Shown here: one piece after another, positions 4,820 to 64,000 of the stretch | Position numbering within the stretch: position 1 is the first letter of the stretch | Layout of the letters: every line of letters begins with the position of its first letter | IMG/VR virus record: IMGVR_UViG_3300036761_003779 | Span: 41,879-105,878 of that record | DNA: 64,000 bases | Origin: a virus | Reading direction: 5' to 3' (one strand) | Made by a program: the position numbers and the translations under genes | Notes under the pieces: generated by a model | What the model was told of the DNA's origin: nothing | What the model saw: the letters and a program-made list of their open reading frames with translations, nothing else | Database searches by the model: none

Positions 4820-7333
4820 CTACTCCTTCGGCCCGGCAACGATGATCTCGTCCCAGACCTCCATGTGGTCTACCTCGAAGCGGCGGACGTTCGTCCCCAG
4901 GACGCCGACCTGGCTCACGTGGAGGAAGGGCTGAACCCGCTTGTCCAGCCAGTCGGAGGCGCCCAGGCCGGCGAGACGGATATTCAGGGCGCTCACGGAG
5001 GACATCCCGGTCATCCAGTAGCTGATCGAGTTGACGGAGGTGTCCACCTCGAAGTAGAACTCCAGCCAGCCGGAGTCGTTGTTCGTGTTCCCGGAGGAGT
5101 CGAAGGTGGCCGCCGGTGCGCTGTTGTCGACCGGCCCGCCGGTTGAGCAGCGGGAGAACAGCTCCCAGTTCGCGCCGACGTTAGCGGTGTCATAGACCCG
5201 GAACTGGATGCACTCCGTTGTGGTCAGGCTGTTGAAGATCCCGAGCCCGTACCAGACGCACTGGTTGACCTGAATGGGGCGCGCCCGGGCGTAGAAGCGG
5301 AGCCGGCGGTAAACCGCCCCGGAGGTCCGGAGGATCCAGCAAGCCGGCCCCTCCCAGGAGAGCCCGTCCCCGGAGGCAATCCCCGCCGTGTCGATGTGGA
5401 GGATGTCCCCCTGACCCTGCATCCCGGTGCCAAAGATGTTCGTGTCGTTGAAGGAGGACGTCCCGCCGTTCCCCCAGGTTCGCGCCCACCACCGCTCGCT
5501 CCCCGGGAGCCCGATGGCCGACTCCGCGTAGTCGAAGCGGTCGACGAAGCGGTGGACGTCCGCCATCCGGCCGAAGGGCGTCCAGCGCATGATCTCCGTC
5601 CCGCGCTCGTCGAAGAGCCCAACCTGCCGGGTGGAGGGCTTCCCGAAGATGGGACCACTCGTCTGCTGCATTGGCTTGACGTTGAGCGCGTACTTGTCCG
5701 CCGCGCCCGACCCCTGAACCAGGGTCCGGAGGTCCAGGCCGCACTTCGTGTGAACCCCGGACTCCGCACCCACCGTCCCGATCCACTGCCCCAGTTGGAG
5801 GCGGCCACCCGGGCTCCCGTAGGCGGGCGCGTCGAAGTCGAGGCTCAGGAGGTCCCGCTGGTCCATCATCCCGGTCGTTGAGCTGATCCGGTTGTTCTTG
5901 GCGTTGACTAGCTTCCCGTAGCCGCGGCTCGGGGCAAGTGTGAGCATCGGCGTGCTGCTCCCGTTCCCGTCGATCCCGGGGAGGAGGAGCCCGAGCCAGT
6001 GGAGGATCGTCGAGGGTGCCGCGGAGGGCAGACCGTTGGAGAAGACCATGCGCGGCTGCATCACGGAAGCGACCTGACCGGTGAGTGCCGGCCAGGCCGG
6101 GGTGACTCCCGTCTGGAAGTCCCGGCATGCGACGGTGTTCGCCCCGACGCTGACGAAGGCGTACACGCCCGCGTAGGCGCCCGTCTTGAGCCAAATGAAC
6201 TGAACGTCCTTGTCCAGGTACCAGGCCAACGGGTTGGCGGAGGCGAAGGTGATCGTGTCCCCGGAGATGCTGCAGTTCTCGTTCCGGATCCCCCCGAACT
6301 CCTGGCAGAGCAGGAGCGGGACGGAGGAGACGTCCCCCATGAGGACCTCCAGGCTGAGCTGGAAGTAGTCGGTGCTGGCGAGCCGGCTGAGTCGGAGCTG
6401 CGCATTGTGGAGGTCGTCCGGTCCGGCGGAATCCGTGTTCATCTCCACCGCGCCGGCGTCCACCTCGATGGCGCGTCCGGAGCCCGCGGAGCCCGTACCG
6501 TCGTAGGCCAGGTCGAGGGTCGGCGGCATGAGGCCTGCCGTCACGTCGATCTGCCCCGCCGTGCTGAAGGCCACCGGCGTCCCGCCGGCACCCACGCCCG
6601 TCACCGAGCCGAGGTAGACGTAGGGATCCGTCACGCTCAGGTCCGTGTTCCTCCGGACCGTCACCCCGGTGGCCGCCGCCGTATAGTCGGTGGCCAGGAC
6701 GGAGGCGGAGCCGCTCCCCTGCCCGAGGAGCCCGGTCGTCACGACCACGTTTTGTCCGCCGGTCCACTGCACCGGGAGGTCCCGCTCGATGGCAACGTCC
6801 TCCTCCACGGTCTTCGGGGAGTTCAGCCACACCGTGACCTTCCGGCCGGCGTGGGAGACCCCGGACTCGAAGAGGGCGTCCACCACGAAGCGGAGCGTCC
6901 CGGCCACCTCCGTTACGCTGTTCGGGTTCCCGGAGAGCCCGATCCGGTCCTCCAGCATGTCGTAGTCGAGGAGCCCGGTCCGCGGGTTCCGGTCGATCCC
7001 CGTCGGGGTGAGGCAATGCCGCACGGCCGCGTAGTAGGTGACCCCCACCGTGTTCTGGAACTGGATCCCCGTCGCGTCCCCGGACGCGAGGGTGAGGATC
7101 AGGACGTGCCCCTCCCCGTCGAGGCACTCGACCGGGAGCGCGTCCACCTTGAACTTGTCCGCCCCGTCCGCGGAGAGGGTGGCGGTCCCGAAGACCCCGC
7201 GGCGGCCGCCAACCACCCGGTGGAGGGTCTCGTACAGCTCCTCTGCCAGGTAGTCAAAGAAGGTGTCCTTGAACCGCGTCTGCGGGAGGTGCCGCTTGTC
7301 CGCGAAGTTTGTCCTGAGGTTCCCGGTTGGCAT
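4820..7333 (-). CDS. Tail fibre / receptor-binding protein
   Basis: 837 aa, G/T/V-rich beta composition; TLDLAYDG..GSGRAI fibre motif; lectin-like C-terminus; follows baseplate genes. Confidence 0.7.
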   Translation of the reverse strand: MPTGNLRTNFADKRHLPQTRFKDTFFDYLAEELYETLHRVVGGRRGVFGTATLSADGADKFKVDALPVECLDGEGHVLILTLASGDATGIQFQNTVGVTYYAAVRHCLTPTGIDRNPRTGLLDYDMLEDRIGLSGNPNSVTEVAGTLRFVVDALFESGVSHAGRKVTVWLNSPKTVEEDVAIERDLPVQWTGGQNVVVTTGLLGQGSGSASVLATDYTAAATGVTVRRNTDLSVTDPYVYLGSVTGVGAGGTPVAFSTAGQIDVTAGLMPPTLDLAYDGTGSAGSGRAIEVDAGAVEMNTDSAGPDDLHNAQLRLSRLASTDYFQLSLEVLMGDVSSVPLLLCQEFGGIRNENCSISGDTITFASANPLAWYLDKDVQFIWLKTGAYAGVYAFVSVGANTVACRDFQTGVTPAWPALTGQVASVMQPRMVFSNGLPSAAPSTILHWLGLLLPGIDGNGSSTPMLTLAPSRGYGKLVNAKNNRISSTTGMMDQRDLLSLDFDAPAYGSPGGRLQLGQWIGTVGAESGVHTKCGLDLRTLVQGSGAADKYALNVKPMQQTSGPIFGKPSTRQVGLFDERGTEIMRWTPFGRMADVHRFVDRFDYAESAIGLPGSERWWARTWGNGGTSSFNDTNIFGTGMQGQGDILHIDTAGIASGDGLSWEGPACWILRTSGAVYRRLRFYARARPIQVNQCVWYGLGIFNSLTTTECIQFRVYDTANVGANWELFSRCSTGGPVDNSAPAATFDSSGNTNNDSGWLEFYFEVDTSVNSISYWMTGMSSVSALNIRLAGLGASDWLDKRVQPFLHVSQVGVLGTNVRRFEVDHMEVWDEIIVAGPKE

Positions 7334-7342
7334 GTCTTCTCC

Positions 7343-8878
7343 TTATGACGGCCCGCCGCCCGTCCCGTAGATCCCGATGGACATCTCCGGGCCGATCCGG
7401 ACGGACTCGAGTGGGTGCCGGAACATCTCCACGTAGGTAGCCGTGAGACGCTGGGACGTCCCGGCGGCCAGCTCCAGGCACCCGGAGACCAGAGCGGAGT
7501 CCGTGACCTCCCCCAGGTGCTTCCCGTCCAGCTCCGCCTGGATGAGGTTCCCGCCACCGCTGACCGGGGTCACGTCCACGGCAAAGGTGTAGTTCAGGTC
7601 GAAGTGGAAGACCGGGAGCGGGACCGTCAGGAGGGAGGTCCGCGCGCCGGCCAGGACCCGATCGACCGTCACGGTGGCGCCGACCCCGCCCGTGGCGGTG
7701 AGGCGCAGCGCGTAGAAGTTGGAGGCGTCCTGGTGGTAAAAGCGGAACTCCCCCCAGCGCCCGACCACGTTCATCCCCAGCCGGAACCGCGCCAGGGCGT
7801 AGTAGTTGACCCAGGTCCCGGAGTTGTCCCGATCCACCCGGATCACGGAGTCCTCGACGCCGCTCAGGAGCTGGACCTCCCCCGCGTCCTGGTCCGAGGT
7901 CGCCTCCCCGGAGACAACGGTCCAGTCGAAGGTCCGCCGGAAGGAGTCCAGGAAGGTCACGTATCGGATGAAGATCCGCTCATTGGCCGAGCGGAGGACC
8001 CGGGTCAGGTTCTCGACCAGCTCCCGGTTCAGGTCCCCGTTGTCCGGGACCCGGAGGTCCGAGCAGTACTCGTCCGGGTCCACGCCCACCCGGTAGCTGT
8101 TCTCGAAGAGGGGCTCGCCCCCGGGCGCCAGGCCCAGTGCGACGGAGGGCGTGCTGACCTTGTTCTCCAGGGTCAGCGGATCCCAGTAGGAGGTGAGCGT
8201 GGCCACCACCCCCCGGGTCGTCAGACAGGTGACGCGGACCCGATGTGGGACCGCTTCCCCGCTCCCCAGGAGCCCGTTCACGCTGAAGTGGATTAGCCCG
8301 GGTCCGACCACCGTGACCTCGTCCGGCGGGATGGAGACCTCCATCCCCGGCGCGTCGATGAGCCACGGGTCCACGTCCGGGATCTCCTCGAAGCCCAGCT
8401 CCGCGGAGTCGACCAGGACCCTGAAGAGGAAGTAGTTGACGATCCGGACCTCCCCCACCATGACCGCCTCGAGGACCTCCTGGAGGCCCGCCTCCGTCCC
8501 CTTCCGCTTCCAGGTCCGGACGGCCATTGCGACGAGCCGCCGCAGCTCCGCCTCCGTGAGGTTCCCGGTGAGGTAGTCCAGGGTGGAGGTCAGGCCGACG
8601 AGCCACTTGACGTGCTTCAGCGCCGCCAGGGTGGTGTGCTCCACGTCGTAGAGGAGACGGAGGGTCTGAACCCGCTCGTACGTGTCCTCGAACTCGCTCT
8701 GCGCCGCCGCCAGCCAGCGGAGGATCAGCTCCCCTCCCTCCGCCTTGTCCGAGTCCCGGAGGGACTGGATGAGCATCATGTAGATGTCGTGCGGGAACGC
8801 CTCCGCCTCCATCGTCCGGTAGGCGATAAAGGAGATCGCGGAGGGGTCGATGGGATTGTTGACAAGGTCGGAGATCAT
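7343..8878 (-). CDS. Baseplate wedge protein (P2 gpI/Afp12-like N-terminus) with lectin-like C-terminal domain
   Basis: LRRLVAMAVRTWKRKGTEAGLQEVLEAV is typical of the gpI-like family; C-terminal FYHQDASNFYALRL beta-sandwich. Confidence 0.7.
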   Translation of the reverse strand: MISDLVNNPIDPSAISFIAYRTMEAEAFPHDIYMMLIQSLRDSDKAEGGELILRWLAAAQSEFEDTYERVQTLRLLYDVEHTTLAALKHVKWLVGLTSTLDYLTGNLTEAELRRLVAMAVRTWKRKGTEAGLQEVLEAVMVGEVRIVNYFLFRVLVDSAELGFEEIPDVDPWLIDAPGMEVSIPPDEVTVVGPGLIHFSVNGLLGSGEAVPHRVRVTCLTTRGVVATLTSYWDPLTLENKVSTPSVALGLAPGGEPLFENSYRVGVDPDEYCSDLRVPDNGDLNRELVENLTRVLRSANERIFIRYVTFLDSFRRTFDWTVVSGEATSDQDAGEVQLLSGVEDSVIRVDRDNSGTWVNYYALARFRLGMNVVGRWGEFRFYHQDASNFYALRLTATGGVGATVTVDRVLAGARTSLLTVPLPVFHFDLNYTFAVDVTPVSGGGNLIQAELDGKHLGEVTDSALVSGCLELAAGTSQRLTATYVEMFRHPLESVRIGPEMSIGIYGTGGGPS

Positions 8879-10277: not shown

Positions 10278-12715
10278 GAGAGCACCCCCAGCGCGTAGGT
10301 GTGCCGCGCGTCCTCGGTCAGAAGCCCCTCCGCCCAGACCGTGTGCGTGTTCAGGTGGATGACCACGACCCGGTTGACGGCCTGGCCCCAGTCAAGGTTG
10401 CAGACCAGGAACTCGTCAGAGCCGTCCCGCGCGTAGGCGATGGCGGAGACCGCCAGGAAGGGCGGGAGGATGTCGTGGTTGGACCCGGGCTTGTAGACCG
10501 GGCAGCCGTACTCGAACGCCCACGCCCCGGGCCACTCCGAGACGTAGATCCCGTCGTCCGTGGCCACGTACAGCCGCGTGGGGGAGGGGCGGAGGGCCAG
10601 CCGCCACTGGGCCACGTACGAGGCCGGGTAGTGCGGCCACTCCTTCATGTACTGCGTGGCAAACGGGAAGCCGTCGAAGCCCGCCTCCCAGGCGGTCTTG
10701 GGGGCGGAGCGGATCCTCCGCGTGCTTGTCTCGATCCAGAGGACCTGTCCGGAGGGGTCGAAGGCGCACCACTCCACGCCGTCCTCGTCCACGGAGTAGG
10801 TGCTCTCCGGGTTCGGGGCGGCCGCCAGGAAGTTGCCGGGCTTCGAGCGGAAGATCTCCAGGCCGAGGCCGCCGCCCACCGCCCAGTGAAGGTAGCCCCC
10901 GGAGTCCTCCTGGTCGTAGAGCGCGACGGAGTTGCTCCCGTAGGTCTTCACCGCCCAGTCGTCGTAGTCCCCCTGGTACCCCTTCCCGGCGTTTCGGTGG
11001 ACCAGCGCCCCGGAGGCGTGCTGGCTCCCGCAGTAGAAGCCCCCGCAGATCGTCGAGGCCGCCAGCCGGTGAATCCGCGCCCGGTCCAGGCGGAAGTCGA
11101 TGAGGATGGCCCCACCCTCGACCGTCCAGGAGCAGCCCACGCTGTAGGAGATCAGGAGGACCCCGTTGCACCACGCGACCCGGTGGACGTAAGGGCTCGA
11201 GCCGTCGTGGAGGAGGTTGTTCGTCCCCCGGTTGAAGCCCATCCAGAGCTTCTTCGCCGCCGCGTCCATCAGCTCGATGGAGGTGGCGGTTGTCAGCACG
11301 GCCAGCTCCGCCGGCATGTCCGCCAGGAGGCCGCGCTCCGCGCCCGCGACCGCCCCCTCCCGGTACCAGCCGGCCCGGTTGGACGTCAGGCCGGAGTTGA
11401 TGGCGAAGCTCGAGAACTTCACGGAGCCCGTCCGGGAGGCGGACCCATCCATCCCAAGGTGGACGTAGACGTCCCCCTGCAGCGACGCGTGGGTGTAGTT
11501 GCTCCCAACCTGGACCCACGTGGCGCCGCTCCAGCGGTAGCCGGAGAGCGTCCCGGCAACCCGGGTGATCCGCAGCTTCCCGGAGACGTCCGAGGTCGTG
11601 AAGGTCCCGAGGGAGACCCAGGTCCCGGACTGCTCCCGCGCCGCCTCGTAGCGCCCGCCGGAGACGTTCCCGCGCCGCTGGATCTGGAAGTCGTTCGACC
11701 CACCGGCGCCGCCCACGTTGGCGGCAACGAACATGATCGCGGTGATCTCGTCCCCGCTGACCGTGTAGGCGGCGAAGTCGGCCTGGATGTCGAAGTCCCC
11801 CGTCAGGAGGACCCACTTCAGGTCGGAGGTCACGCGCGCGGTCTGGTAGCCCCAGGCCGGCGTCCCAAGGTGCGTGAACGTCAGCTCCCCGTCCGCGGTC
11901 AGCGTCGCGGTCCCGTAGGCGTCCGACCACCCAAGCGGGTCCTCCCCCGGGAAGCGCCACGCCAGCCGGTTCTTCCCGCCCGCCATCGACCCGAAGCCGC
12001 CCGGCCCGCACTCCTCCCCGTGGTCGTAGAAGCGCCCGTTGCGTGCCGCCCCCGTGTGCCCGAGGCCCGGCGTCCCGAACGTCCCCCGCGTCGTGTCGAC
12101 GAGGATGGCGTCGTAGTGCCAGGCCGCGTTCGCCGTCTCCCGCCCGTCCGCGTCGTAGATGTCGTCCCCCCAGTCCGAGAGCCCGGAGCCCGGGAGGGAC
12201 AGCTCCCAGTTGAGGGTGTCCTCCGCCCCGCCGCGGTCCAGGGCGCCGAGGAGGACGCCCCGGCTCTCCCCCGCGACGGCGTCGTGGAGCAGGATCCGGT
12301 CCGCCGGGCGCGTGAACTCGACCGCGCCCGCGAAGAGGTGGACCAGCCGGTCCTCCAGGCTCCCCGCCTGCGCGCTCTCGTCCGCCCGGGACATGAGCTG
12401 GTCGCCGAGCGTGAGCGGGTCCGCGCCCCAGAGCCGCGGCTGCCGCGGGTCGAGCCCGGGGTTAAGGAGCGCCGCCGCGTCGAAGGCCCCGGCCCCGGGG
12501 TCCGGGCCGCTCGGGGTCCCCGCCCCGTCGTCACCCGTCACGTCCAGCGGGCTCCGGCTCGCCCGCCCCGGAACGCGCTGGCCCATCCCGGCCGCCTGCC
12601 CGCCCACGCCCTCCGCGGCCGCCGGCCCGCCCGCGTCCGCCTGCTCCCCGGCGTCAAACGCCCCGCCGCCGGGGTAGGAGTTGGTGGGGAAGTTGTCTCG
12701 CTCTTGGTCCGCCAT
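10274..12715 (-). CDS. Large tail/baseplate-associated protein (lectin-like plus propeller-like regions)
   Basis: 813 aa; LTGDFDIQADF..GKLRITRVAGTLSGY lectin-like segment; shares a motif with the next gene. Confidence 0.6.
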   Translation of the reverse strand: MADQERDNFPTNSYPGGGAFDAGEQADAGGPAAAEGVGGQAAGMGQRVPGRASRSPLDVTGDDGAGTPSGPDPGAGAFDAAALLNPGLDPRQPRLWGADPLTLGDQLMSRADESAQAGSLEDRLVHLFAGAVEFTRPADRILLHDAVAGESRGVLLGALDRGGAEDTLNWELSLPGSGLSDWGDDIYDADGRETANAAWHYDAILVDTTRGTFGTPGLGHTGAARNGRFYDHGEECGPGGFGSMAGGKNRLAWRFPGEDPLGWSDAYGTATLTADGELTFTHLGTPAWGYQTARVTSDLKWVLLTGDFDIQADFAAYTVSGDEITAIMFVAANVGGAGGSNDFQIQRRGNVSGGRYEAAREQSGTWVSLGTFTTSDVSGKLRITRVAGTLSGYRWSGATWVQVGSNYTHASLQGDVYVHLGMDGSASRTGSVKFSSFAINSGLTSNRAGWYREGAVAGAERGLLADMPAELAVLTTATSIELMDAAAKKLWMGFNRGTNNLLHDGSSPYVHRVAWCNGVLLISYSVGCSWTVEGGAILIDFRLDRARIHRLAASTICGGFYCGSQHASGALVHRNAGKGYQGDYDDWAVKTYGSNSVALYDQEDSGGYLHWAVGGGLGLEIFRSKPGNFLAAAPNPESTYSVDEDGVEWCAFDPSGQVLWIETSTRRIRSAPKTAWEAGFDGFPFATQYMKEWPHYPASYVAQWRLALRPSPTRLYVATDDGIYVSEWPGAWAFEYGCPVYKPGSNHDILPPFLAVSAIAYARDGSDEFLVCNLDWGQAVNRVVVIHLNTHTVWAEGLLTEDARHTYALGVLS

Positions 12716-12716
12716 G

Positions 12717-14444
12717 TCACACCACCAGGAAGCCGTGCGCGGTCATCGCGCCCGCCTCCTCCAGGGTTGGGTGCGTCACCGCCCGGATGACCACGTCGTC
12801 GTGGCACCGGACCGCGAAGGCGCCGCCCAGTGGCCAGGAGGAACCGACGAGGTAGTCCGTCTTGAGCGCGCGGAGGAGCTGGATCCGCTGGACCGCCGCG
12901 GTCTCCCCCGGGAGGACCTCCCCGCCGGGCGGGCTCCCAAAGACCCCGCCCCCGCCGCCGCCCGCGATCGTGTAGCAGAGGTCGTACCCAAGGGAGACCC
13001 GGTGGACCCGCCAGACCCCGGAGGCGCCCCCGCAGTACACGTGGTTGGCGCCAACCGCGAGGGAGGTGACCGCCTCCGGAAGCTCCACCGCGGCGGAGAT
13101 CCGGCCCCGGAGGTCCCCATGCCCGGCGGTGAGCGGGTCCACGAGGACCCCGCGCCGGTAGTCTAGGCCGGCGCGGATCAGCCGGTTCTGCTGGCTCCAC
13201 CACATCTCCCCGGACCGCCCGAAGGCCACCCGCCGGATGTCCCCGACGTTGTAGACGAGGGCGGAGGGATTCTGCCAGTACTGGAACTGACCCGCGTTAT
13301 TGAGGAACTCGACGACCTCCAGCCCGTCCTCCCCGACCTGCGCCGCCCAGGCCCGCCGCGGGTCCGCCGGGTCGACGGAGACCGCCAGCGCGTGGACGTC
13401 CTCGTTGTTGATCCAGAGGGAGGGGGAGACCCCCGTGGGCGTCCACGGGTTCCCCGTGTTCCGGTTGACGATGGTCTGCCCGGCGGTCAGCCACCAGTGC
13501 CCGTCCGCGCGGATCAGCTGACCCGCGTTCTGCCCGGTGGCCTTGAAGTCCACCGCGAACAGGCCGCCGTTCTCCCAGGAGTTGGTCCGCATGCCCGCGT
13601 ACAGGACCCCGTTGACCATGCAGACGTCCCGGACGGACTCCACGCCCCGGCCCAGGAAGTGGAACTCCGTGGAGGTCGCACTGTTCCCCAGCCTGAACCG
13701 CATCCAGACCGTCAGCGTCCCGCCGGCGTGGTAGAGGTCCAGGTCGTAGATCACCACCTCCAGCCGGTCGACGATGATCAGGGCCAGGTCCGGGAAGTCG
13801 TCCCGGACCCCGCGGTCCTGGGAGGACGCCTCGGACGCCCAGGGCGCCCAGACCGGCCCCGCGTCCTCCACGCCGTTCGTGTACTTCTTCCCGTTCTGCG
13901 CGTAGCCGGAGAAGCCGCCCGCCGTCGGGGTGTGCCAGGCGTCCTTCGTCGCGTCGTAGACGAAGGCCCGGTACACCCAGTACGTCGTCAGGTGCTGATG
14001 CCCGTCCGCGTCGAGGGTCGGGAGCTGCGCGTTGTACTGCGGGTCCGCCCCCTGCCACCGGCGGTCCCGGTCGAGCGGCGCCGTCACCCCCTGCACGCCG
14101 TTCTGGTTCTCGGAGGAGAACCAGGCCCGCGTCGACAGCTGCAGCTCCACCGTCGGCGCCGCGTCGCTGTACCCCACCCCCGCCGCGCGCGTGCCGTCCG
14201 CCTCCGCGGCGTCCGCCTCCGCGGAGCCCTCCGGGAGCCGGAGGCCCGTAGAGAACTCCGGCTGCGGGCGCCTCGGTCCGCCGGCGTCCAGGAAGCGGTA
14301 GGCGTCGCATGCGCCGGCCGCGGGCTTTGGCCCCACCTCCTCCCCCGCCGGCGCCTCCGCCGGCCCGGGGAGGATCTTCTGGAGGTCCTTCCCGATGTCG
14401 AGGAGGAGCCGGTCCTCCAGGGCTCCTGCGCACGTCCTAGCCAC
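12717..14444 (-). CDS. Tail-associated beta-propeller-like protein, paralogue of 10274..12715
   Basis: 575 aa; DRGVRDDFPDLAL..VWMRFRLG aligns with ERGLLADMPAELAV..LWMGFNRG; both contain AGxLEDRL. Confidence 0.6.
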   Translation of the reverse strand: MARTCAGALEDRLLLDIGKDLQKILPGPAEAPAGEEVGPKPAAGACDAYRFLDAGGPRRPQPEFSTGLRLPEGSAEADAAEADGTRAAGVGYSDAAPTVELQLSTRAWFSSENQNGVQGVTAPLDRDRRWQGADPQYNAQLPTLDADGHQHLTTYWVYRAFVYDATKDAWHTPTAGGFSGYAQNGKKYTNGVEDAGPVWAPWASEASSQDRGVRDDFPDLALIIVDRLEVVIYDLDLYHAGGTLTVWMRFRLGNSATSTEFHFLGRGVESVRDVCMVNGVLYAGMRTNSWENGGLFAVDFKATGQNAGQLIRADGHWWLTAGQTIVNRNTGNPWTPTGVSPSLWINNEDVHALAVSVDPADPRRAWAAQVGEDGLEVVEFLNNAGQFQYWQNPSALVYNVGDIRRVAFGRSGEMWWSQQNRLIRAGLDYRRGVLVDPLTAGHGDLRGRISAAVELPEAVTSLAVGANHVYCGGASGVWRVHRVSLGYDLCYTIAGGGGGGVFGSPPGGEVLPGETAAVQRIQLLRALKTDYLVGSSWPLGGAFAVRCHDDVVIRAVTHPTLEEAGAMTAHGFLVV

Positions 14445-58670: not shown

Positions 58671-59452
58671 GGCATCTCCTCCCCGGAGTGCGTCCGGAGC
58701 CCCTCCAGAACAACCGGGCAGACCTCCCGGAAGTGCTCGAGGACCTCCCGGACGCACTTCTTGATCTGCCACTGGGCGTGCTTGTCCAGGCGCATCCGGA
58801 AGACGTGCCGCCACTCCCGGAGGTTGAAGGTGGTGTACACCTCCGTCTTGGTGGCGTTCGGGAGGACCTCCCGCGCGTCCTCCGCCGGTATTCCGTCCTC
58901 CCGCAGGGCCATGTAGGTGCTGTACGCCAGGAGGGCGTCCCAGCAGAAGCGGAACAGCGGCGTGTCCGCCACGAGGTGCTCCGAGACCGGCTGGGAGGGG
59001 TGGGAGACGTCCACGACGGCGTGTCCGCCGGTGTCCAGGATCCGGACCACGCTCCCGGGCATGGGCGTCCCGATGGAGGGCGGGACGACGACCTTCAGCC
59101 GCGCCTTCCCCTCCTCCCCCGCGTAGTCGCAGAACCGCTGGGACTCCTGAGTGTAGGCGGCAATCCGGTGCCGGACGAGCTGGTGGGACATCGAGCGGCT
59201 CCCGATGAGGCAGGCCGTGAAGGAGGCGTGCTCGAGGATGCTCTCGTGCCCCCACTCGATGGCCACCTTCCGGACGAAGGGCTCCGCGCTCCCCGGCCGG
59301 ATCCGCCCCTCGCTCTTGTGGGAGACCCGGCCGCACTCCTCAACGAGCCGGAGCGCCCTTGCGGCCCACTCCGGGTCCTCCCGCGCCGTCACCAGCTCCG
59401 CGTGAGGCTCGACGACCTCCAGCTCGACCGCCTTCATCCACATTGTGCTCAT
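58667..59452 (-). CDS. thyX: FAD-dependent thymidylate synthase
   Basis: GHESILEH, SHQLVRHRIAAYTQESQR, EDAREVLP, NLREWRH, AQWQI. Confidence 0.95.
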   Translation of the reverse strand: MSTMWMKAVELEVVEPHAELVTAREDPEWAARALRLVEECGRVSHKSEGRIRPGSAEPFVRKVAIEWGHESILEHASFTACLIGSRSMSHQLVRHRIAAYTQESQRFCDYAGEEGKARLKVVVPPSIGTPMPGSVVRILDTGGHAVVDVSHPSQPVSEHLVADTPLFRFCWDALLAYSTYMALREDGIPAEDAREVLPNATKTEVYTTFNLREWRHVFRMRLDKHAQWQIKKCVREVLEHFREVCPVVLEGLRTHSGEEMP

Positions 59453-59675
59453 CCGCGTTCCCGCCTTTCCGCCGCACGAGCCGCCGGAGGTACCAGAGCG
59501 CCTTCTCCAGGTCCTTCAGCTCCGCCTCCCCGCCCTTCCGGCCCGCGCGCGCCACGTACTTGACCACGTTCCCCGCGTGGAAGCCCAGCTCCCACGCCTC
59601 GATGGCGTCGATGACCTCGATCCCGCCCAGGCAGTAGTGGGAGGGGTGGTCGATCTCCCTGCGGTTCACTTCCAT
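59340..59675 (-). CDS. DUF3310 (SaV-like) protein
   Basis: IDHPSHY..IEVIDAI..GFHAGNVVKYVARAGRK..DLEKALWYL. Confidence 0.85.
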   Translation of the reverse strand: MEVNRREIDHPSHYCLGGIEVIDAIEAWELGFHAGNVVKYVARAGRKGGEAELKDLEKALWYLRRLVRRKGGNADEHNVDEGGRAGGRRASRGAGDGAGGPGVGRKGAPAR

Positions 59676-60346
59676 CCGAGCGCCTCCCGGACGTCCAGGC
59701 GCTCGACCTGGACCCCGTTCCGCTTGAGGATCTTCATGGCGTCCCCCGATAACCCGTAGCGGCTGTCGTAGGGCTCCGCAAAGACCACGCGCGCCACCCG
59801 GACCCGGAGGAACCGCTTGGCGCAGTCCCAGCAGGCGCCCGCCGTCGTGTAGACCGTCGCGCCCGCCGGCGTCGTCCCGTCCAGCGCGCACTGCAGCAGG
59901 GCGTTCTCCTCCGCGTGGAGGGTCCGGACGCAGTGCTCGCCCCGGATGAGGTGCCCGCCGCTCAGCTCACCGCCGCACTTGGGGCACTTCCCGGCCTGGA
60001 TCTCCGCCTTCCCGAAGCCCCGCTCGTCCGTCCCCTCCGGGAAGCCCCCGGACCAGTCCGCGTCGCAGCCCAGACACCTCAGCTCGAAGCAGTGCGGCTC
60101 CCCGGGCGGGCTCCCGTTGTAGCCCCCGGCGATGATGCGGTGCTCCCGGACCAGGACCGCGCCCACGCCGTGCCGCCCGGCGTCCAGGAGCAGCTCCGGC
60201 CCCCGGTCGCAGGTCGAGCGGGTGGCCGCCAGGTGGGCGTGGAGCATGAAGAAATACGGCCAGTCGAGCCTTGGAATCCTCAGACGACTCGGCTGTACGC
60301 CTTTCCTAACAGGATCGCGCGAACTGTACGAACGGAAACGCTCCAT
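59666..60346 (-). CDS. dCMP deaminase with inserted Zn ribbon; 5' end supplied by the HNH insert
   Basis: [42 protein letters not shown]; start codon uncertain (60346 or 60248). Confidence 0.88.
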
Positions 60347-60894
60347 TCTCGAGCCAACTTTCTATGAGATGTTGCACCCAGCGCGTAGGACGCGCGGATC
60401 TCTCGAACCGCCTCATCCGTCAACTTCCGGAGACTCTTCCTCTGGTCCGCGCTGTAGTGCCGCTCCCCGCGCGGGACCTTCTCCGGTGACGTCTGGGTAT
60501 AGTGCCGCTCCCCGCGCGGGACCTTCTCCGGGCGTACACGGGAGTAGTGGACGTCCCCGCGCGGGACCTTCTCCGGGTTCCGCCGCGTCCAATGGGCGTC
60601 CCCGCTCGGGTAGAGCCCCTTTGCCGCGGCGTCCGCGCAGTTGTCCACGTGGGTCCCAAGGAAGAGATGACCCGGGTTCACGCAGCGCTTGTTGTCACAT
60701 GAGTGAAGAACGAACGCCCCCTTCGAGATCTCCCCGCGGGAGAGGATCCAGGCCACGCGGTGGGCGCCCTCCAGCACTCCCCGGAATGCAAACTTCCCGT
60801 AGCCGCTCCGGAAGATAGCCGCCGTCCAGTTCCAGCACTCCGCCTCCCCGCCACGGATGTACTTCTCGTCGAACCTGGCTTGGAGCGTCTTCAC
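60280..60894 (-). CDS. HNH homing endonuclease (HNH_3 type) with tandem repeats and C-terminal HTH
   Basis: [40 protein letters not shown]; [23 protein letters not shown]. Confidence 0.93.
60455..60609. repeat. 45-bp tandem repeat (PEKVPRG(E/D)xHY), three units plus a partial
   Basis: Units start at 60455, 60500 and 60545, partial at 60590; core TCCCCGCGCGGGACCTTCTCCGG. Confidence 0.9.
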
Positions 60895-61043
60895 CTCCGC
60901 CCCTCCATCTCCCGCCGGAGTAGCTCCCGGACGAACTCAGACTTTGTACAGCCTAGCCGCTCGCACTCCTCCTCGAGCCACTTCATCAGAACCGGGGGGA
61001 GCCACGCAAATAGCTTCTCGATGTTCTTCTTTGGTCTTGTCAT
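60891..61043 (-). CDS. Ribbon-helix-helix (CopG-like) repressor, leaderless
   Basis: [46 protein letters not shown]; GTGA coupling to the HNH gene. Confidence 0.85.
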
Positions 61044-61078
61044 GAACCTATTATAGATACCTAGACAGGTTCTGTAAA
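61044..61078 (-). promoter_or_regulatory. Near-consensus sigma70 promoter TTTACA-N17-TATAAT with GAACCT/AGGTTC inverted operator
   Basis: -35 at 61073-61078, -10 at 61050-61055, ATG 6 nt later; inverted arms at 61044-61049 and 61067-61072. Confidence 0.85.
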
Positions 61079-61100
61079 GAAACGGAAGACGTTCATCTTC
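61076..61100 (-). terminator. Possible weak intrinsic terminator at the upstream edge of the insert
   Basis: GAAGAU-GAAC-GUCUUC hairpin followed by CGUUUCUUU. Confidence 0.4.
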
Positions 61101-61106
61101 AGAGGG

Positions 61107-61286
61107 CAGTCGCGGAACCCGGAGCCGCGCCTCCTCCCGCCCGCGCCTCCGCGCCTCGTCCAGGGCCAGCCGGACGGACTCCACGCTCCCGAGGTTGACC
61201 ATCAGGGTCCAGGGCGCCTCCGGTTTGGACGCCCCGCGCATGTTCGCGCCCGTCCGCGGGTCGTCCGAGAAGTCGGTTTCGCTCAT
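61107..61286 (-). pseudogene. Displaced original N-terminus of the dCMP deaminase, reading in frame into the RHH gene
   Basis: MSETDFSDD...EEARLRVPRL, then AT-rich promoter DNA with no stop. Confidence 0.55.
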
Positions 61287-61831
61287 TCCACGTCCTCCAC
61301 GACGTTGTCCGCGGTTGCCGCGGCGCGCCAGATCTCCAGGTCCAGCCCCCGAGGGGTCTTCCCGGCCGCCTCCGCCTCCCGCAGGTAGATGGCCTCCAGC
61401 GCCCCGTAGAGGCGCCCGGAACCTGGTGGGGTACTAGGAGTCGGGTGCCCGCGCTCACGTAACCAGCGGAGCACGTGGCGGTCCAGGACAGCGTATTTCT
61501 CCCACGGCCGGGTCCAGGTCACGAAGAAGCGGCTCGTCTTGGGCCCAATCCCCGGGATCCGCTCCAGCTCCTCCGGGGTGACCGCGAAGAGGTCCAGCCC
61601 CGCCTCCCGGAGCGCCCGGCACGCGGCCTCCAGCTTCCCGTAGTTGCCCGTGCGGGCGGCCCGGAGGAAGGGTCCCGGCTCCCCGACCCCGAGGAACAGG
61701 ATGGGGATCCGGAGGCAGCCGCGCGGGATGACCTCCTGGAGCCGCTTGACCGCCCCGTTGGCGAACCGCGCGGACTTCCCGGCCACGACAAGGGCGTAGA
61801 CCAGCCGCCACTCGAGCTGAGCGCGGGTCAC
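61283..61831 (-). CDS. HhH-GPD / Ogg-like N-glycosylase/DNA lyase
   Basis: LERIPGIGPKTSRFF, YAVLDRHVLRWL, YGALE, LDLEIW. Confidence 0.8.
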   Translation of the reverse strand: MTRAQLEWRLVYALVVAGKSARFANGAVKRLQEVIPRGCLRIPILFLGVGEPGPFLRAARTGNYGKLEAACRALREAGLDLFAVTPEELERIPGIGPKTSRFFVTWTRPWEKYAVLDRHVLRWLRERGHPTPSTPPGSGRLYGALEAIYLREAEAAGKTPRGLDLEIWRAAATADNVVEDVE

Positions 61832-62046
61832 CGGCACCTGCCCCTCCGGCAGTCCCGGGAGGCGCACTCCCGGTCTTGCCGGCAAACCGCGCCCGGCGCC
61901 CAGCCCCTCGGCGCCTCGCAGCGTCCGCGCCGACAGTCCCGGGAGGCGCACTCCCGGCGGTGCTCGCAGGGCGCGCCGGCGGGCTTCTCCCAGGCGAGCC
62001 CGGGAGCGGGGAGGAGGAGCAGCGCGGCGAGGAGGGCCGGCCTCAC
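61828..62046 (-). CDS. Small secreted Cys-rich two-repeat protein
   Basis: Signal-like RPALLAALLLLPAPGLA; two G..C....EC.SRDCRRGRC units; exact 24-bp repeat at 61850-61873 and 61934-61957. Confidence 0.7.
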   Translation of the reverse strand: MRPALLAALLLLPAPGLAWEKPAGAPCEHRRECASRDCRRGRCEAPRGWAPGAVCRQDRECASRDCRRGRCR

Positions 62047-62315
62047 GGCCGCGCCTCCCCCCGCTTCCGGGCGTTCATGGCGGCCCGGCACTCGTGGCAG
62101 TTCGGCTGAAGGTCGATCACGCCGTCCCCCATGTGCCGGAGCCCAACGCGCCCGACCGCCTTGGGGCGCCGGCAGCCCTGGCAGTAGACCTTCACGCGCG
62201 CCTCCGTCCCGCCGCCCGGGGTCTCCCGGAAGGTCTCCAGGAAGCGCAGGGAGATCTCGACGTCCCCGACGTGGATGCTGGTCCCCTCGACCCGGATCTC
62301 CGGTTTTCTACTCAT
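62043..62315 (-). CDS. Zn-finger hypothetical protein
   Basis: CQGC..CHEC. Confidence 0.55.
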   Translation of the reverse strand: MSRKPEIRVEGTSIHVGDVEISLRFLETFRETPGGGTEARVKVYCQGCRRPKAVGRVGLRHMGDGVIDLQPNCHECRAAMNARKRGEARP

Positions 62316-62793
62316 CCTTGTCCTCCTCCGGCTCGAACTCGGCCGCGACCCACGCGCAGTCCTCCTGGATGCCCTCGAGGCGCCCCAGCGTCCCGGGGAG
62401 GCGGTCCTCCCCGTCCTCATGCCTCCGGACCGCCCGGGCCATCTCCGCGTGCGCGAAGGTCCCGAGGGTGGCCCCGAAGACCAGCGCGCGCTCCCCCATC
62501 ACGCGGCACGTCAGGCGCGCCGCCTGGACCGTCTCGTGCTCCTCCGCGGTGAGCGCCGGGTTCACCTCGCGGACCTTCTCCGCCGCCCGGAGGAGGCTGC
62601 GGCAGGCCGCCACGAAGGTCCGGAGCGGGCTGTCCTCCGGCCCGCGCGCCACCACGGCCACCGGGATCCGATCCGGCCCGGTGACCACGGAGCACTCGAC
62701 CGCCCAGCCGTCCGCCTTGAGGTCCTTCACCAGCTCCCGCATCGCCGCCAGCTCCGCCGGCGTGAACGCGGACTCGGGCATCTTGTCAGTCAT
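62308..62793 (-). CDS. Hypothetical protein
   Basis: 161 aa, GGAGGAG SD. Confidence 0.6.
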   Translation of the reverse strand: MTDKMPESAFTPAELAAMRELVKDLKADGWAVECSVVTGPDRIPVAVVARGPEDSPLRTFVAACRSLLRAAEKVREVNPALTAEEHETVQAARLTCRVMGERALVFGATLGTFAHAEMARAVRRHEDGEDRLPGTLGRLEGIQEDCAWVAAEFEPEEDKDE

Positions 62794-63037
62794 CGCTCCT
62801 CCACTCGGCCAGGCGCCGCTCGAGGTCGTCCCGCTCGTCCCGGAGCGCCCGGTGGAGCGTGCCCGCCATGACCAGGTCCCGGACCAGGTTGACCACGCAG
62901 ACCGCGGAGACGTCGTCCCCGCGCGTCCGCGCCTCCCGGAGGAGGTGCTTGAGCCGGTTCCGCGCCTGCGCCGCGCGCTCCGCCGGGAGGAGGTCCGCCA
63001 GGATGATGTCCGAAATTGAGTTGGGGTCTTCCGCCAT
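62786..63037 (-). CDS. Hypothetical protein
   Basis: 83 aa, operon packing. Confidence 0.55.
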   Translation of the reverse strand: MAEDPNSISDIILADLLPAERAAQARNRLKHLLREARTRGDDVSAVCVVNLVRDLVMAGTLHRALRDERDDLERRLAEWRSDD

Positions 63038-63065
63038 GCTCAGGGGTAGGCGGAGATGAGCGGAC

Positions 63066-63608
63066 TCAGCCGCAGCCGGTCGTCGTCCCGCAGGTGAGGG
63101 CGTTCGAGACGTGCTTCCAGATCTGCCGATTGGCTATCCGGTCCACCGTCCGCCGATTGATCCCCACGGACTCCGCGATAACGCGCCGCGACTCAGAAGG
63201 AAGGCGGAGGAGAACCTCCCGCACGCGGTCCTCGCTCATCTTCGAGGCCCCATTCCGCTCCCCATGCGCCGCCCGCTCCGGATGGAGCCGGAGTCCGTGA
63301 CGTTCCCCGCGGACGTGGACCTGCCTCCCCTTGGCCACGCAGTCCCGGACGTTCTCCGCGTGGGTCCCCGGGATCAAGTGGCTCGGGTTGCAGCACGGTG
63401 GGTTGTCACACGTATGGCGGACCGCCTCCGCGTCCGTCGGTCCGAAGGTCAGTTCGTAGGCCATGCGGTGGGCGCCAACCTCCCGCCCGTCCCGGAAGAC
63501 CCGCCCATATCCCTTCTTGCTCCGCAGTGCGGTCCAGAGCCAGCAGGCGTCCGGTCCCCCGCTCCGGTCCACGCGGCTCCAGAAGTCCGAGTTGGGTCTC
63601 CTACGCAT
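63066..63608 (-). CDS. HNH homing endonuclease (HNH_3 type) ending in the captured RNR C-terminus
   Basis: DACWLWT..GYG..AHRMAY..VRHTCDNPPCCNPSHLIPGTHAEN; start is the TAATG overlap with the RNR stop; ends LTCGTTTGCG. Confidence 0.93.
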   Translation of the reverse strand: MRRRPNSDFWSRVDRSGGPDACWLWTALRSKKGYGRVFRDGREVGAHRMAYELTFGPTDAEAVRHTCDNPPCCNPSHLIPGTHAENVRDCVAKGRQVHVRGERHGLRLHPERAAHGERNGASKMSEDRVREVLLRLPSESRRVIAESVGINRRTVDRIANRQIWKHVSNALTCGTTTGCG

Positions 63609-64000
63609 TAGCCGCATCCCGTTGTAGTTCCGCATGTCAAACACCTATGGCAGTTCCCGTTTGGTTCCGTGATGGCGCCGCAGTTCGAGCAGGGCGGCCC
63701 GGAGTCGTGGATCCGCCGCGTCACGTGCTCGACCGCCGCCTCGAGCGCCTCCGCGACCGTGGCGCCGCCCGCGGGCTTCTCCGCCGCCCCGAACCGCCCA
63801 CCCGGGAAGCGCCGCTCCACCCAGCGGACCAGGTAGTCGAGCGGGGAGGTCACCGCGCCGATGTCCGGGTTGTCCGAGTAGCCGAAGGGCTCGAAGCGCG
63901 TCCGCCGGAACTTCTCCGCCAGGTCGTCCCAGGGGACCCCGTACTGGAGCGCAATCGAGATCGAGGTGGCCCAGGCGTCCATGAGGCCCCGGACCGTGCT
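63608..64000 (-). CDS. nrdJ: Class II (B12-dependent) ribonucleotide reductase, C-terminal TSCPD and Zn-ribbon region (partial)
   Basis: STVRGLMDAWATSISIALQYGVP..KF..TRFEPFG..TSPLDY..CSNCG..NGNCHRCLTCGTTTGCG. Confidence 0.85.
   Translation of the reverse strand, partial: STVRGLMDAWATSISIALQYGVPWDDLAEKFRRTRFEPFGYSDNPDIGAVTSPLDYLVRWVERRFPGGRFGAAEKPAGGATVAEALEAAVEHVTRRIHDSGPPCSNCGAITEPNGNCHRCLTCGTTTGCG

Follow-up and report, generated by a model that had tools for sequence, protein, structure and literature searches.

The dCMP deaminase locus

The DNA analyzed here (the window) comprises the right-hand 64 kb of the virus record IMGVR_UViG_3300036761_003779 of IMG/VR, a 105,878-bp phage genome of about 70% GC that is rated complete by CheckV; all coordinates are positions of this window unless marked as genome coordinates. 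Our subject is a small cassette on its minus strand, located at the 5' end of a gene for deoxycytidine monophosphate (dCMP) deaminase. In transcription order, the locus consists of the first part of the deaminase gene, a hairpin, a promoter bordered by short repeats, a gene for a ribbon-helix-helix (RHH) protein, a gene for an HNH endonuclease, and a second, differently spelled beginning of the deaminase that runs into its catalytic core. These features had been listed in an initial annotation made from the letters of the sequence, and all of them were found on the minus strand where it had placed them. The block that is foreign to the gene measures 841 nt (61103-60263, with a one-base ambiguity) and sits after a proline codon of the deaminase 5' part.

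On the upstream side of this block, the stranded resident fragment (61107-61286) encodes a 53-aa N-terminal extension followed by RLRVPRL. It has a GC content at third codon positions (GC3) of 0.93, and its ATG overlaps the stop codon of an upstream HhH/OGG-like gene (ATGA). On the downstream side lies the resident deaminase core (59666-60262, minus strand), which begins with WPYFFM, has a GC3 of 0.97, matches dCMP_cyt_deam_1 (E 9.3e-15) and precedes overlapping genes and thyX.

We compared the locus with five related uncultured phages (L007 to L011), two of which are represented by complete genomes. Their deaminases are 63-75% identical to that of the window, and in all five the gene is uninterrupted and reads ...R(V/I)PRLPW(D/P)xF(F/W)MLHAHL.... 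The flanks of the block are only 10 nt apart in L008 versus 839 nt apart in the window (blastn). L008 also has an N-terminal extension, IAAVRDALSEAERRGREAGLRERLRIPRL, that is homologous to the stranded window fragment VESVRLALDEARRRGREEARLRVPRL (17/29 identical, E 1e-6), and this counterpart is fused in a single open reading frame (ORF) to RLRIPRLPW and the core. Given the uninterrupted relatives, the homology between the L008 extension and the stranded fragment, and the adjoining flanks in L008, we conclude that the deaminase gene is truly split at its 5' end, as had been proposed in the initial annotation. The concern raised there that the upstream 60-aa segment had never been part of a deaminase is answered by the same relative, where it is fused to the core. 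The resident gene was formerly of the long form MSETDF...EEARLRVPRLP-W-PYFFM..., like the gene of L008. From these comparisons, we consider it very likely that the block is an insertion and has the nature of a homing element.

The codons around the insertion are present twice. The 5' copy, RLRVPRLP (61104-61127), has resident-type spelling: CGG CTC CGG GTT CCG CGA CTG (RLRVPRL, 61127-61107) is followed by CCC for proline, and the nearest relative is L007. The 3' copy reads CGT CTG AGG ATT CCA AGG CTC (RLRIPRL, 60286-60266) and continues as GAC TGG CCG TAT TTC TTC ATG (DWPYFFM); its spelling resembles L008, L009 and L010. It has aspartate (RLRIPRLD) where the 5' copy and all relatives have proline. 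Both copies align to the same LR(V/I)PRL columns of the deaminases of the relatives, which places the seven-residue similarity beyond the coincidence that had been considered for it.

The 3' copy is part of a cassette-borne new head of the deaminase (60263-60346, minus strand, GC3 0.57). Two starts can be proposed for this head: an ATG at 60346, which lies in the deaminase frame inside the 3' end of the HNH gene and has no Shine-Dalgarno sequence, and a CTG at 60283-81, which overlaps the HNH stop codon (CTGA). Base composition also separates the block from its surroundings. Resident genes have GC3 values of 0.89-0.97 (0.93-0.97 on both flanks), versus 0.33 for the 63-nt leader in front of the RHH gene, 0.78 for the RHH gene and 0.80 for the HNH gene, falling to 0.64 in its last third. 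The cassette-borne copy probably acts as a "rescue head" for the deaminase.

N-termini of the deaminases vary among the relatives. The genes of L009 and L010 begin with MFRIPRLPW behind a GGAGG, that of L008 has a 40-aa extension, and those of L007 and L011 have extensions of about 90 aa. The L011 gene (L011:3716-4010, IMGVR_UViG_3300017963_000253) carries a 96-aa in-frame N-terminal extension with a doubled RIP-RIP directly before PRLPW. Because of this doubling and the different lengths of the short, 40-aa and roughly 90-aa forms, the RIPRLPW codons appear to mark a rearrangement hot spot. Within the core, an insertion of about 50 aa with four cysteines (C-x2-C ... C-P-x-C, 59940-60090) separates the deaminase motifs in the window and in all five relatives; it matches a reverse-gyrase zinc finger weakly (E 0.005) and is unusual for dCMP deaminases.

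The RHH and HNH genes

The first gene of the cassette (60891-61043, minus strand) encodes a 50-aa Arc/CopG-like RHH protein without a C-terminal extension. The match to Pfam RHH_1 (E 6.7e-4, 20.0 bits) is just under the cut-off of 20.5 bits, while two metagenomic relatives (L048 and L049) pass this model; a PHROG described as CopG-like repressor is matched with E 0.007. When 1.8 billion representatives were searched exhaustively with phmmer, eight short RHH homologues of 50-114 aa were found, all of which start with M[ST]RPKxNT at residue 1. The AlphaFold2 (AF2) model has a predicted local distance difference test score (pLDDT) of 89.8 and shows an extended N-terminus followed by helices at residues 17-30 and 34-49, the strand and two-helix layout of about 45 residues typical of this fold. 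Its top Foldseek matches are CopG structures (2cpg, 1b01 and 1ea4; TM 0.72-0.85, root-mean-square deviation 1.2-1.4 A), followed by Arc, ParG, NikR and RHH antitoxins. The protein ends at residue 50, straight after helix 2, and the model therefore suggests a minimal DNA-binding RHH protein rather than an antitoxin with a toxin-binding tail.

The stranded deaminase fragment reads in frame through the leader into the RHH gene, and gene callers report the two together as a 131-aa ORF (P0121, 60891-61286). Since the N-termini of the homologues coincide with the ATG at 61043, we take this ATG as the true RHH start, and the 131-aa protein is probably not the normal route of RHH synthesis but an artefact of gene calling or, at most, made by read-through. 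The RHH gene is thus a real stand-alone gene of the CopG/Arc fold that starts at the ATG expected from the promoter geometry. There is also a lesson for annotation, as merging the stranded fragment with the RHH gene creates a false 131-aa protein and misplaces the start of the deaminase.

Relatives of the RHH protein are sparse. The gene is absent from all five related phages, and no relatives were found in IMG/VR or in GTDB genomes. Metagenome contigs gave two relatives, both of them PIN-associated RHH antitoxins, which are the nearest relatives by tblastn. Sequence searches of the PDB gave no significant match for either the RHH or the HNH protein.

The second gene (60280-60894, minus strand) encodes a 204-aa HNH_3 homing-type endonuclease (E 2.5e-11; 43.5 bits versus a cut-off of 24.8) composed of a nuclease domain, three 15-aa PEKVPRGxxHY modules and a C-terminal helix-turn-helix (HTH). 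Its GTG start overlaps the RHH stop codon (GTGA), and a GGAGG lies 7 nt before it, inside the 3' end of the RHH gene. Six HNH_3 genes are present in this phage, at genome coordinates 5214-5684, 8013-8492, 10622-11158 and 13277-13867 and at two places in the window, with GC3 values (0.64-0.85) below those of resident genes. In an alignment of these six paralogues the motif CW.W/GYG/AHR/H.CDN..C..P.HL..GT...N is invariant; together with the domain match, this marks the cassette HNH as an intact HNH_3 nuclease. The same query that found six genes in this genome found no HNH_3 gene in the five relatives at E up to 1e-5, and with their uninterrupted deaminases the relatives thus show a presence/absence polymorphism. 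Identity of the HNH to any other protein found does not exceed 49%. No close relatives of the cassette were found in cultured phages (blastn, tblastn), and no near-identical copy was found in any collection searched. A tblastx comparison of the cassette with the loci of the relatives gave compositional noise only and was discarded.

A 45-bp tandem repeat (60455-60610, about three copies with 76-87% matches) encodes the three PEKVPRGxxHY modules between the nuclease and the HTH. In the paralogues, one or two looser RGERHG-type modules were seen. Because the 45-bp repeats are near-identical and the modules of the paralogues are fewer and looser, this suggests a recent module duplication in the DNA-binding linker of the HNH.

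The second HNH_3 gene of the window (63644-63066; locus 63066-63667) is located in the last codons of a class II ribonucleotide reductase (RNR) gene, in a mirror layout at the 3' end. The RNR is completed upstream by a low-GC copy of ...CLTCGTTTGCG, and the GC-rich resident copy forms an in-frame fusion with the HNH end.

Promoter and candidate control sites

The RHH gene is preceded by a sigma-70-like promoter (61050-61078, minus strand), in which TTTACA (61078-73) and TATAAT (61055-50) are separated by a 17-nt spacer and match 11 of 12 consensus positions. It is the sole site that scores at least 10/12 against the sigma-70 consensus in the 105,878-bp genome. The hexamer TATAAT occurs only once in the whole genome, both strands counted. 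A gap of 6 nt separates the -10 box from the RHH ATG, a spacing that fits leaderless transcripts; on this layout, we give even odds to a leaderless RHH-HNH mRNA.

Upstream of the promoter and running into it (61076-61100, minus strand), a weak hairpin of six pairs with a GAAC loop (GAAGAU-GAAC-GUCUUC, 61100-61085) is followed by the U-rich tail CGUUUCUUU (61084-76). The initial annotation had taken this for a terminator. Hairpin and tail are indeed present, but only two of the six pairs are G-C, the folding energy is -3.9 to -4.7 kcal/mol and the terminator scan did not call it, so termination strength is poor. At best it would be a leaky terminator.

Repeat search and RNA folding pointed to a candidate operator or RNA hairpin around the -10 box (61044-61072, minus strand), where the 13-mer GAACCTGTCTAGG (61072-61060) faces AGGTTC (61049-61044). 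The arms of this inverted repeat are GAACCT (61072-67) and AGGTTC (61049-44). They bracket the -10 box, but 6 bp alone are not significant and a reading at the RNA level is equally good. A genome-wide repeat search found an inverted second copy of the 13-mer (60871-60883, minus strand), matched at 11/13 positions and located 11 nt inside the HNH ORF. This is the single other match in the genome at up to two mismatches, and 0.013 chance matches are expected inside the cassette. The GAACCT sites at 61072-60, 61049-44 and 60883-71 can be read as predicted RHH operators or, equally, as RNA pairings. I-TevI represses itself via an operator that mimics its homing site; the cassette has no such mimic, as similarity between its promoter region and the presumed target was not above that of shuffled sequences.

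A perfect 13-nt inverted repeat was also observed between the 5' target-codon copy, CTCCGGGTTCCGC (61112-61124), and its reverse complement at 60571-60583, 528 nt away in the first PEKVPRG module of the HNH. With 0.72 matches expected at up to one mismatch in 64 kb, this is a borderline finding, and it could represent long-range RNA pairing, a nuclease binding site or coincidence.

A proposed homing mechanism and its alternatives

We propose that a free-standing HNH_3 homing cassette with an RHH repressor invaded the 5' end of the deaminase gene, and we give this full explanation a probability of roughly 60%. During mixed infection, the HNH would nick or cut cassette-free deaminase alleles near the conserved RIPRLPW codons, and the block would be copied in by repair from the cassette-bearing genome. 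The cassette-borne head would remove the target site and keep the catalytic core translatable, with the old N-terminal extension left stranded upstream. Translation of the core would begin at the ATG at 60346 or by reinitiation at the CTGA overlap; reinitiation at the CTG could give a deaminase N-terminus like the MFRIPRL of L009 and L010.

Expression of the nuclease would be limited by the cassette itself. Host RNA polymerase would fire the promoter early and produce a leaderless RHH-HNH transcript. RHH dimers would then bind the GAACCT-containing elements around the -10 box, perhaps together with the third copy at the HNH start, and shut the promoter, so that the nuclease would be made as a short pulse, as with Arc at P22 Pant and at IS605 promoters. 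Arc of P22 is known to repress its own promoter Pant (PMC12111858), and Arc-type RHH proteins repress IS605 promoters, with arc genes often adjoining homing endonuclease genes (Moon et al. 2026, bioRxiv 10.64898/2026.09.24.754181). These published precedents raise the prior for the RHH as own repressor and at the same time lower the novelty of the idea. By analogy, the RHH has about an equal chance of being or not being the repressor of its cassette, and the autorepression and burst of expression put forward in the initial annotation are likewise inferred from the usual behaviour of RHH proteins.

The genes of the locus form an unbroken chain of overlaps: the HhH/OGG-like gene ends in the start codon of the fragment (ATGA), which itself continues in frame into the RHH gene, the RHH stop overlaps the HNH start (GTGA), and the HNH stop overlaps the deaminase CTG (CTGA). 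It is possible, as previously suggested, that the cassette promoter takes over transcription of the deaminase and thyX. The chain would also permit expression from upstream transcripts without the cassette promoter.

A more elaborate version of the proposal is a self-limiting "home-and-rescue" drive, in which a consensus early promoter would yield the RHH and HNH as a leaderless pulse in every infection, the RHH would close this promoter via the three GAACCT sites, possibly with a DNA loop between the promoter and the site within the HNH start, and the recoded head would both immunise the target and rescue the enzyme. We regard this version as tentative and rather doubtful. If it were true, portable RHH "heads" could represent a general, undescribed control module of phage homing nucleases.

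Several points weigh against the proposed mechanism. A perfect 6-bp inverted repeat occurs in 28% of shuffles of the same 80-nt stretch, which is chance level, and the 13-mer was picked post hoc from the repeat list, so that its true significance is weaker than the expectation of chance matches implies. RHH-HNH pairs in other phages, which the initial annotation had suggested looking for, did not turn up: relatives of this RHH were not next to an HNH gene in 29 viral HNH loci (ORF listing and a local hidden Markov model search), in three cultured phages or at the five paralogues. Neither was a fused RHH-HNH protein found among the 120 best HNH homologues or the longer RHH homologues. Expression of the core may be poor, as no Shine-Dalgarno sequence precedes the new deaminase start. 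Alternative origins of the 8-codon duplication are a donor in which the cassette lay upstream of a deaminase, or an ancient duplication of the target. Finally, the phage that carries the cassette is uncultured.

Control could instead operate at the RNA level, as in T4, where homing nucleases are silenced on early transcripts by RNA pairing (PMC2988022). Structures formed only on read-through transcripts would block access to the RHH AUG and to the first codons of the HNH, while transcripts from the cassette promoter, which lack the 5' arm, would be translated; the RHH would have another role. In read-through RNA, GAACCU...AGGUUC forms a hairpin (-10.4 kcal/mol) directly next to the AUG, the 13-mer (61072-60) is complementary to 60883-71 at 11/13 positions, and I-TevI, I-TevII, I-TevIII, segB and Aeh1 mobE are documented cases in which the promoter lies within an inhibitory hairpin (PMC2988022). 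However, the RHH frame is already translated on read-through RNA within the 131-aa ORF, so that ribosomes would melt the hairpin, and the presence of a DNA-binding RHH is left unexplained. We find RNA-level control unlikely; it is not exclusive of the proposed mechanism.

Somewhat less probable is that the RHH gene is a passenger or an independent regulator, a promoter-bearing "moron" with targets elsewhere in the phage or in the host. The lack of an RHH-HNH pairing for this RHH family or HNH subfamily would fit such a role, as would the nearest tblastn relatives being antitoxins of PIN toxins. On the other hand, the GTGA overlap and the HNH Shine-Dalgarno sequence in the RHH 3' end make the two genes one translational unit, the promoter 13-mer has no match in the genome except at the HNH start, and both genes are absent from all five relatives.

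We see a similarly low probability for a fossil or domesticated cassette that has lost homing, with the HNH kept for another job or decaying and the deaminase either working without its extension or effectively lost. The absence of a near-identical cassette copy from the collections searched, the divergence of the HNH from all other proteins found (identity of 49% at most) and the deaminase start without a Shine-Dalgarno sequence are in line with this. But none of the three ORFs is disrupted and the nuclease motif shows no variation, the deaminase core shares 75% identity with that of L007 and retains its HAEEN and C-W-D-C zinc motifs as in the relatives, and the near-identical 45-bp repeats of the HNH point to recent change and not to decay.

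An RHH-HNH pair resembling a toxin-antitoxin system, in which direct binding of the RHH protein would neutralise the nuclease, is highly improbable. The closest RHH relatives are antitoxins, and the gene order is the same, with the antitoxin first and an overlapping toxin gene. However, the 50-aa RHH ends with helix 2 and has no C-terminal toxin-binding extension, for which reason we rejected membership in type II toxin-antitoxin pairs. HNH_3 homing nucleases are not known as type II toxins. Restoration of the deaminase at the RNA or protein level, by a self-splicing intron of group I or II or by an intein, can be practically discarded, for although phage nucleotide-metabolism genes often host such HNH-encoding elements, a search of 59000-64000 against Rfam gave no match at E up to 10, the non-coding part of the insert is only 63 nt, the insert contains two stop codons and a frame change, Pfam finds no Hint domain, and such elements do not duplicate flanking codons.

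The proposed homing cassette can be compared with several known systems. Like the seg and mob genes of T4-like phages and Aeh1 mobE in nrdA, which are cases of "intronless homing" (PMC2988022), it places an HNH gene without an intron or intein in or beside a nucleotide-metabolism gene. As with the free-standing nucleases of T4-like phages, one phage has the element and relatives are without it, expression is woven into the host operon, and a promoter and an inverted repeat are found by the start codon. Unlike the situation here, most free-standing nuclease genes of T4 lack a dedicated promoter and none is accompanied by a separate repressor gene; also unlike those elements, the cassette strands an N-terminal extension and supplies a replacement head.

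In this last respect the cassette resembles the WHO elements at yeast FBA1, which replace a gene end upon homing (Coughlan et al. 2020, PMC7282813). In both cases a conserved gene is invaded and one end is replaced by a differently spelled copy; with WHO, the invaded gene keeps its function and loses the target site. The layout found here, with a diverged duplicate of the gene end joined to a functional body and a mirror case at the RNR gene, is of the same kind. However, only the layout is shared: the nucleases of WHO elements derive from inteins and are HO-like, and an identity of this type was rejected for the cassette nuclease, which is HNH_3. WHO replaces the 3' end of a eukaryotic gene, whereas the cassette replaces the 5' end of a phage gene and the second HNH gene at the RNR represents a 3' version.

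The regulatory half of the cassette resembles in organization Pant-arc-ant of the P22 immI region, with a strong promoter, a tiny RHH gene first and the effector second. In P22 the RHH protein shuts its own promoter and the effector is limited to an early pulse; that effector is an antirepressor, versus a predicted homing nuclease here. By Pfam, the sequence family of the cassette RHH is closer to CopG/RHH_1. As with the Arc of IS605, a micro-RHH is encoded by a mobile element alongside its nuclease, with repression known for IS605 and predicted here. The IS605 element is a transposon with TnpA and TnpB, and the cassette a putative phage homing cassette.

The initial annotation had drawn its analogy to C proteins of restriction systems. 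Such proteins have a helix-turn-helix fold, act as both activators and repressors, and hold back the nuclease until methylation has been completed. Similarities exist in the small regulator gene upstream of and overlapping the nuclease gene, and in regulation timed on cell entry. Unlike C-protein systems, the cassette has a consensus promoter that needs no activator and a regulator that is an RHH protein, and no methyltransferase gene was found in or beside it (ORFs, Pfam). We therefore rejected membership in C-protein-controlled restriction-modification and consider Pant-arc-ant of P22 or the Arc of IS605 the closer comparison.

The element can be described as a free-standing homing endonuclease with a separate putative micro-repressor and a replacement gene head. 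Homing nuclease genes require expression sufficient to spread but too low to harm the carrier, and the solutions known from phages are borrowed promoters, RNA hairpins and nucleases that double as their own repressor. A micro-repressor that is encoded separately and travels with the nuclease would amount to a portable control module. With its re-spelled gene head, the cassette has the same parts as engineered "cleave-and-rescue" gene drives. It also offers a compact test case consisting of one promoter, one 50-aa protein and three candidate sites.

The cassette is located in a stretch where every gene from 64.0 to 58.6 kb of the window is on the minus strand. According to the ORF list and Pfam, the order is the class II RNR C-terminus, the second HNH gene, small ORFs, the HhH/OGG-like gene, the cassette region, the dCMP deaminase core, a small ORF and thyX. 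The HhH/OGG-like gene (61951-61283) is the upstream neighbour of the stranded deaminase fragment.

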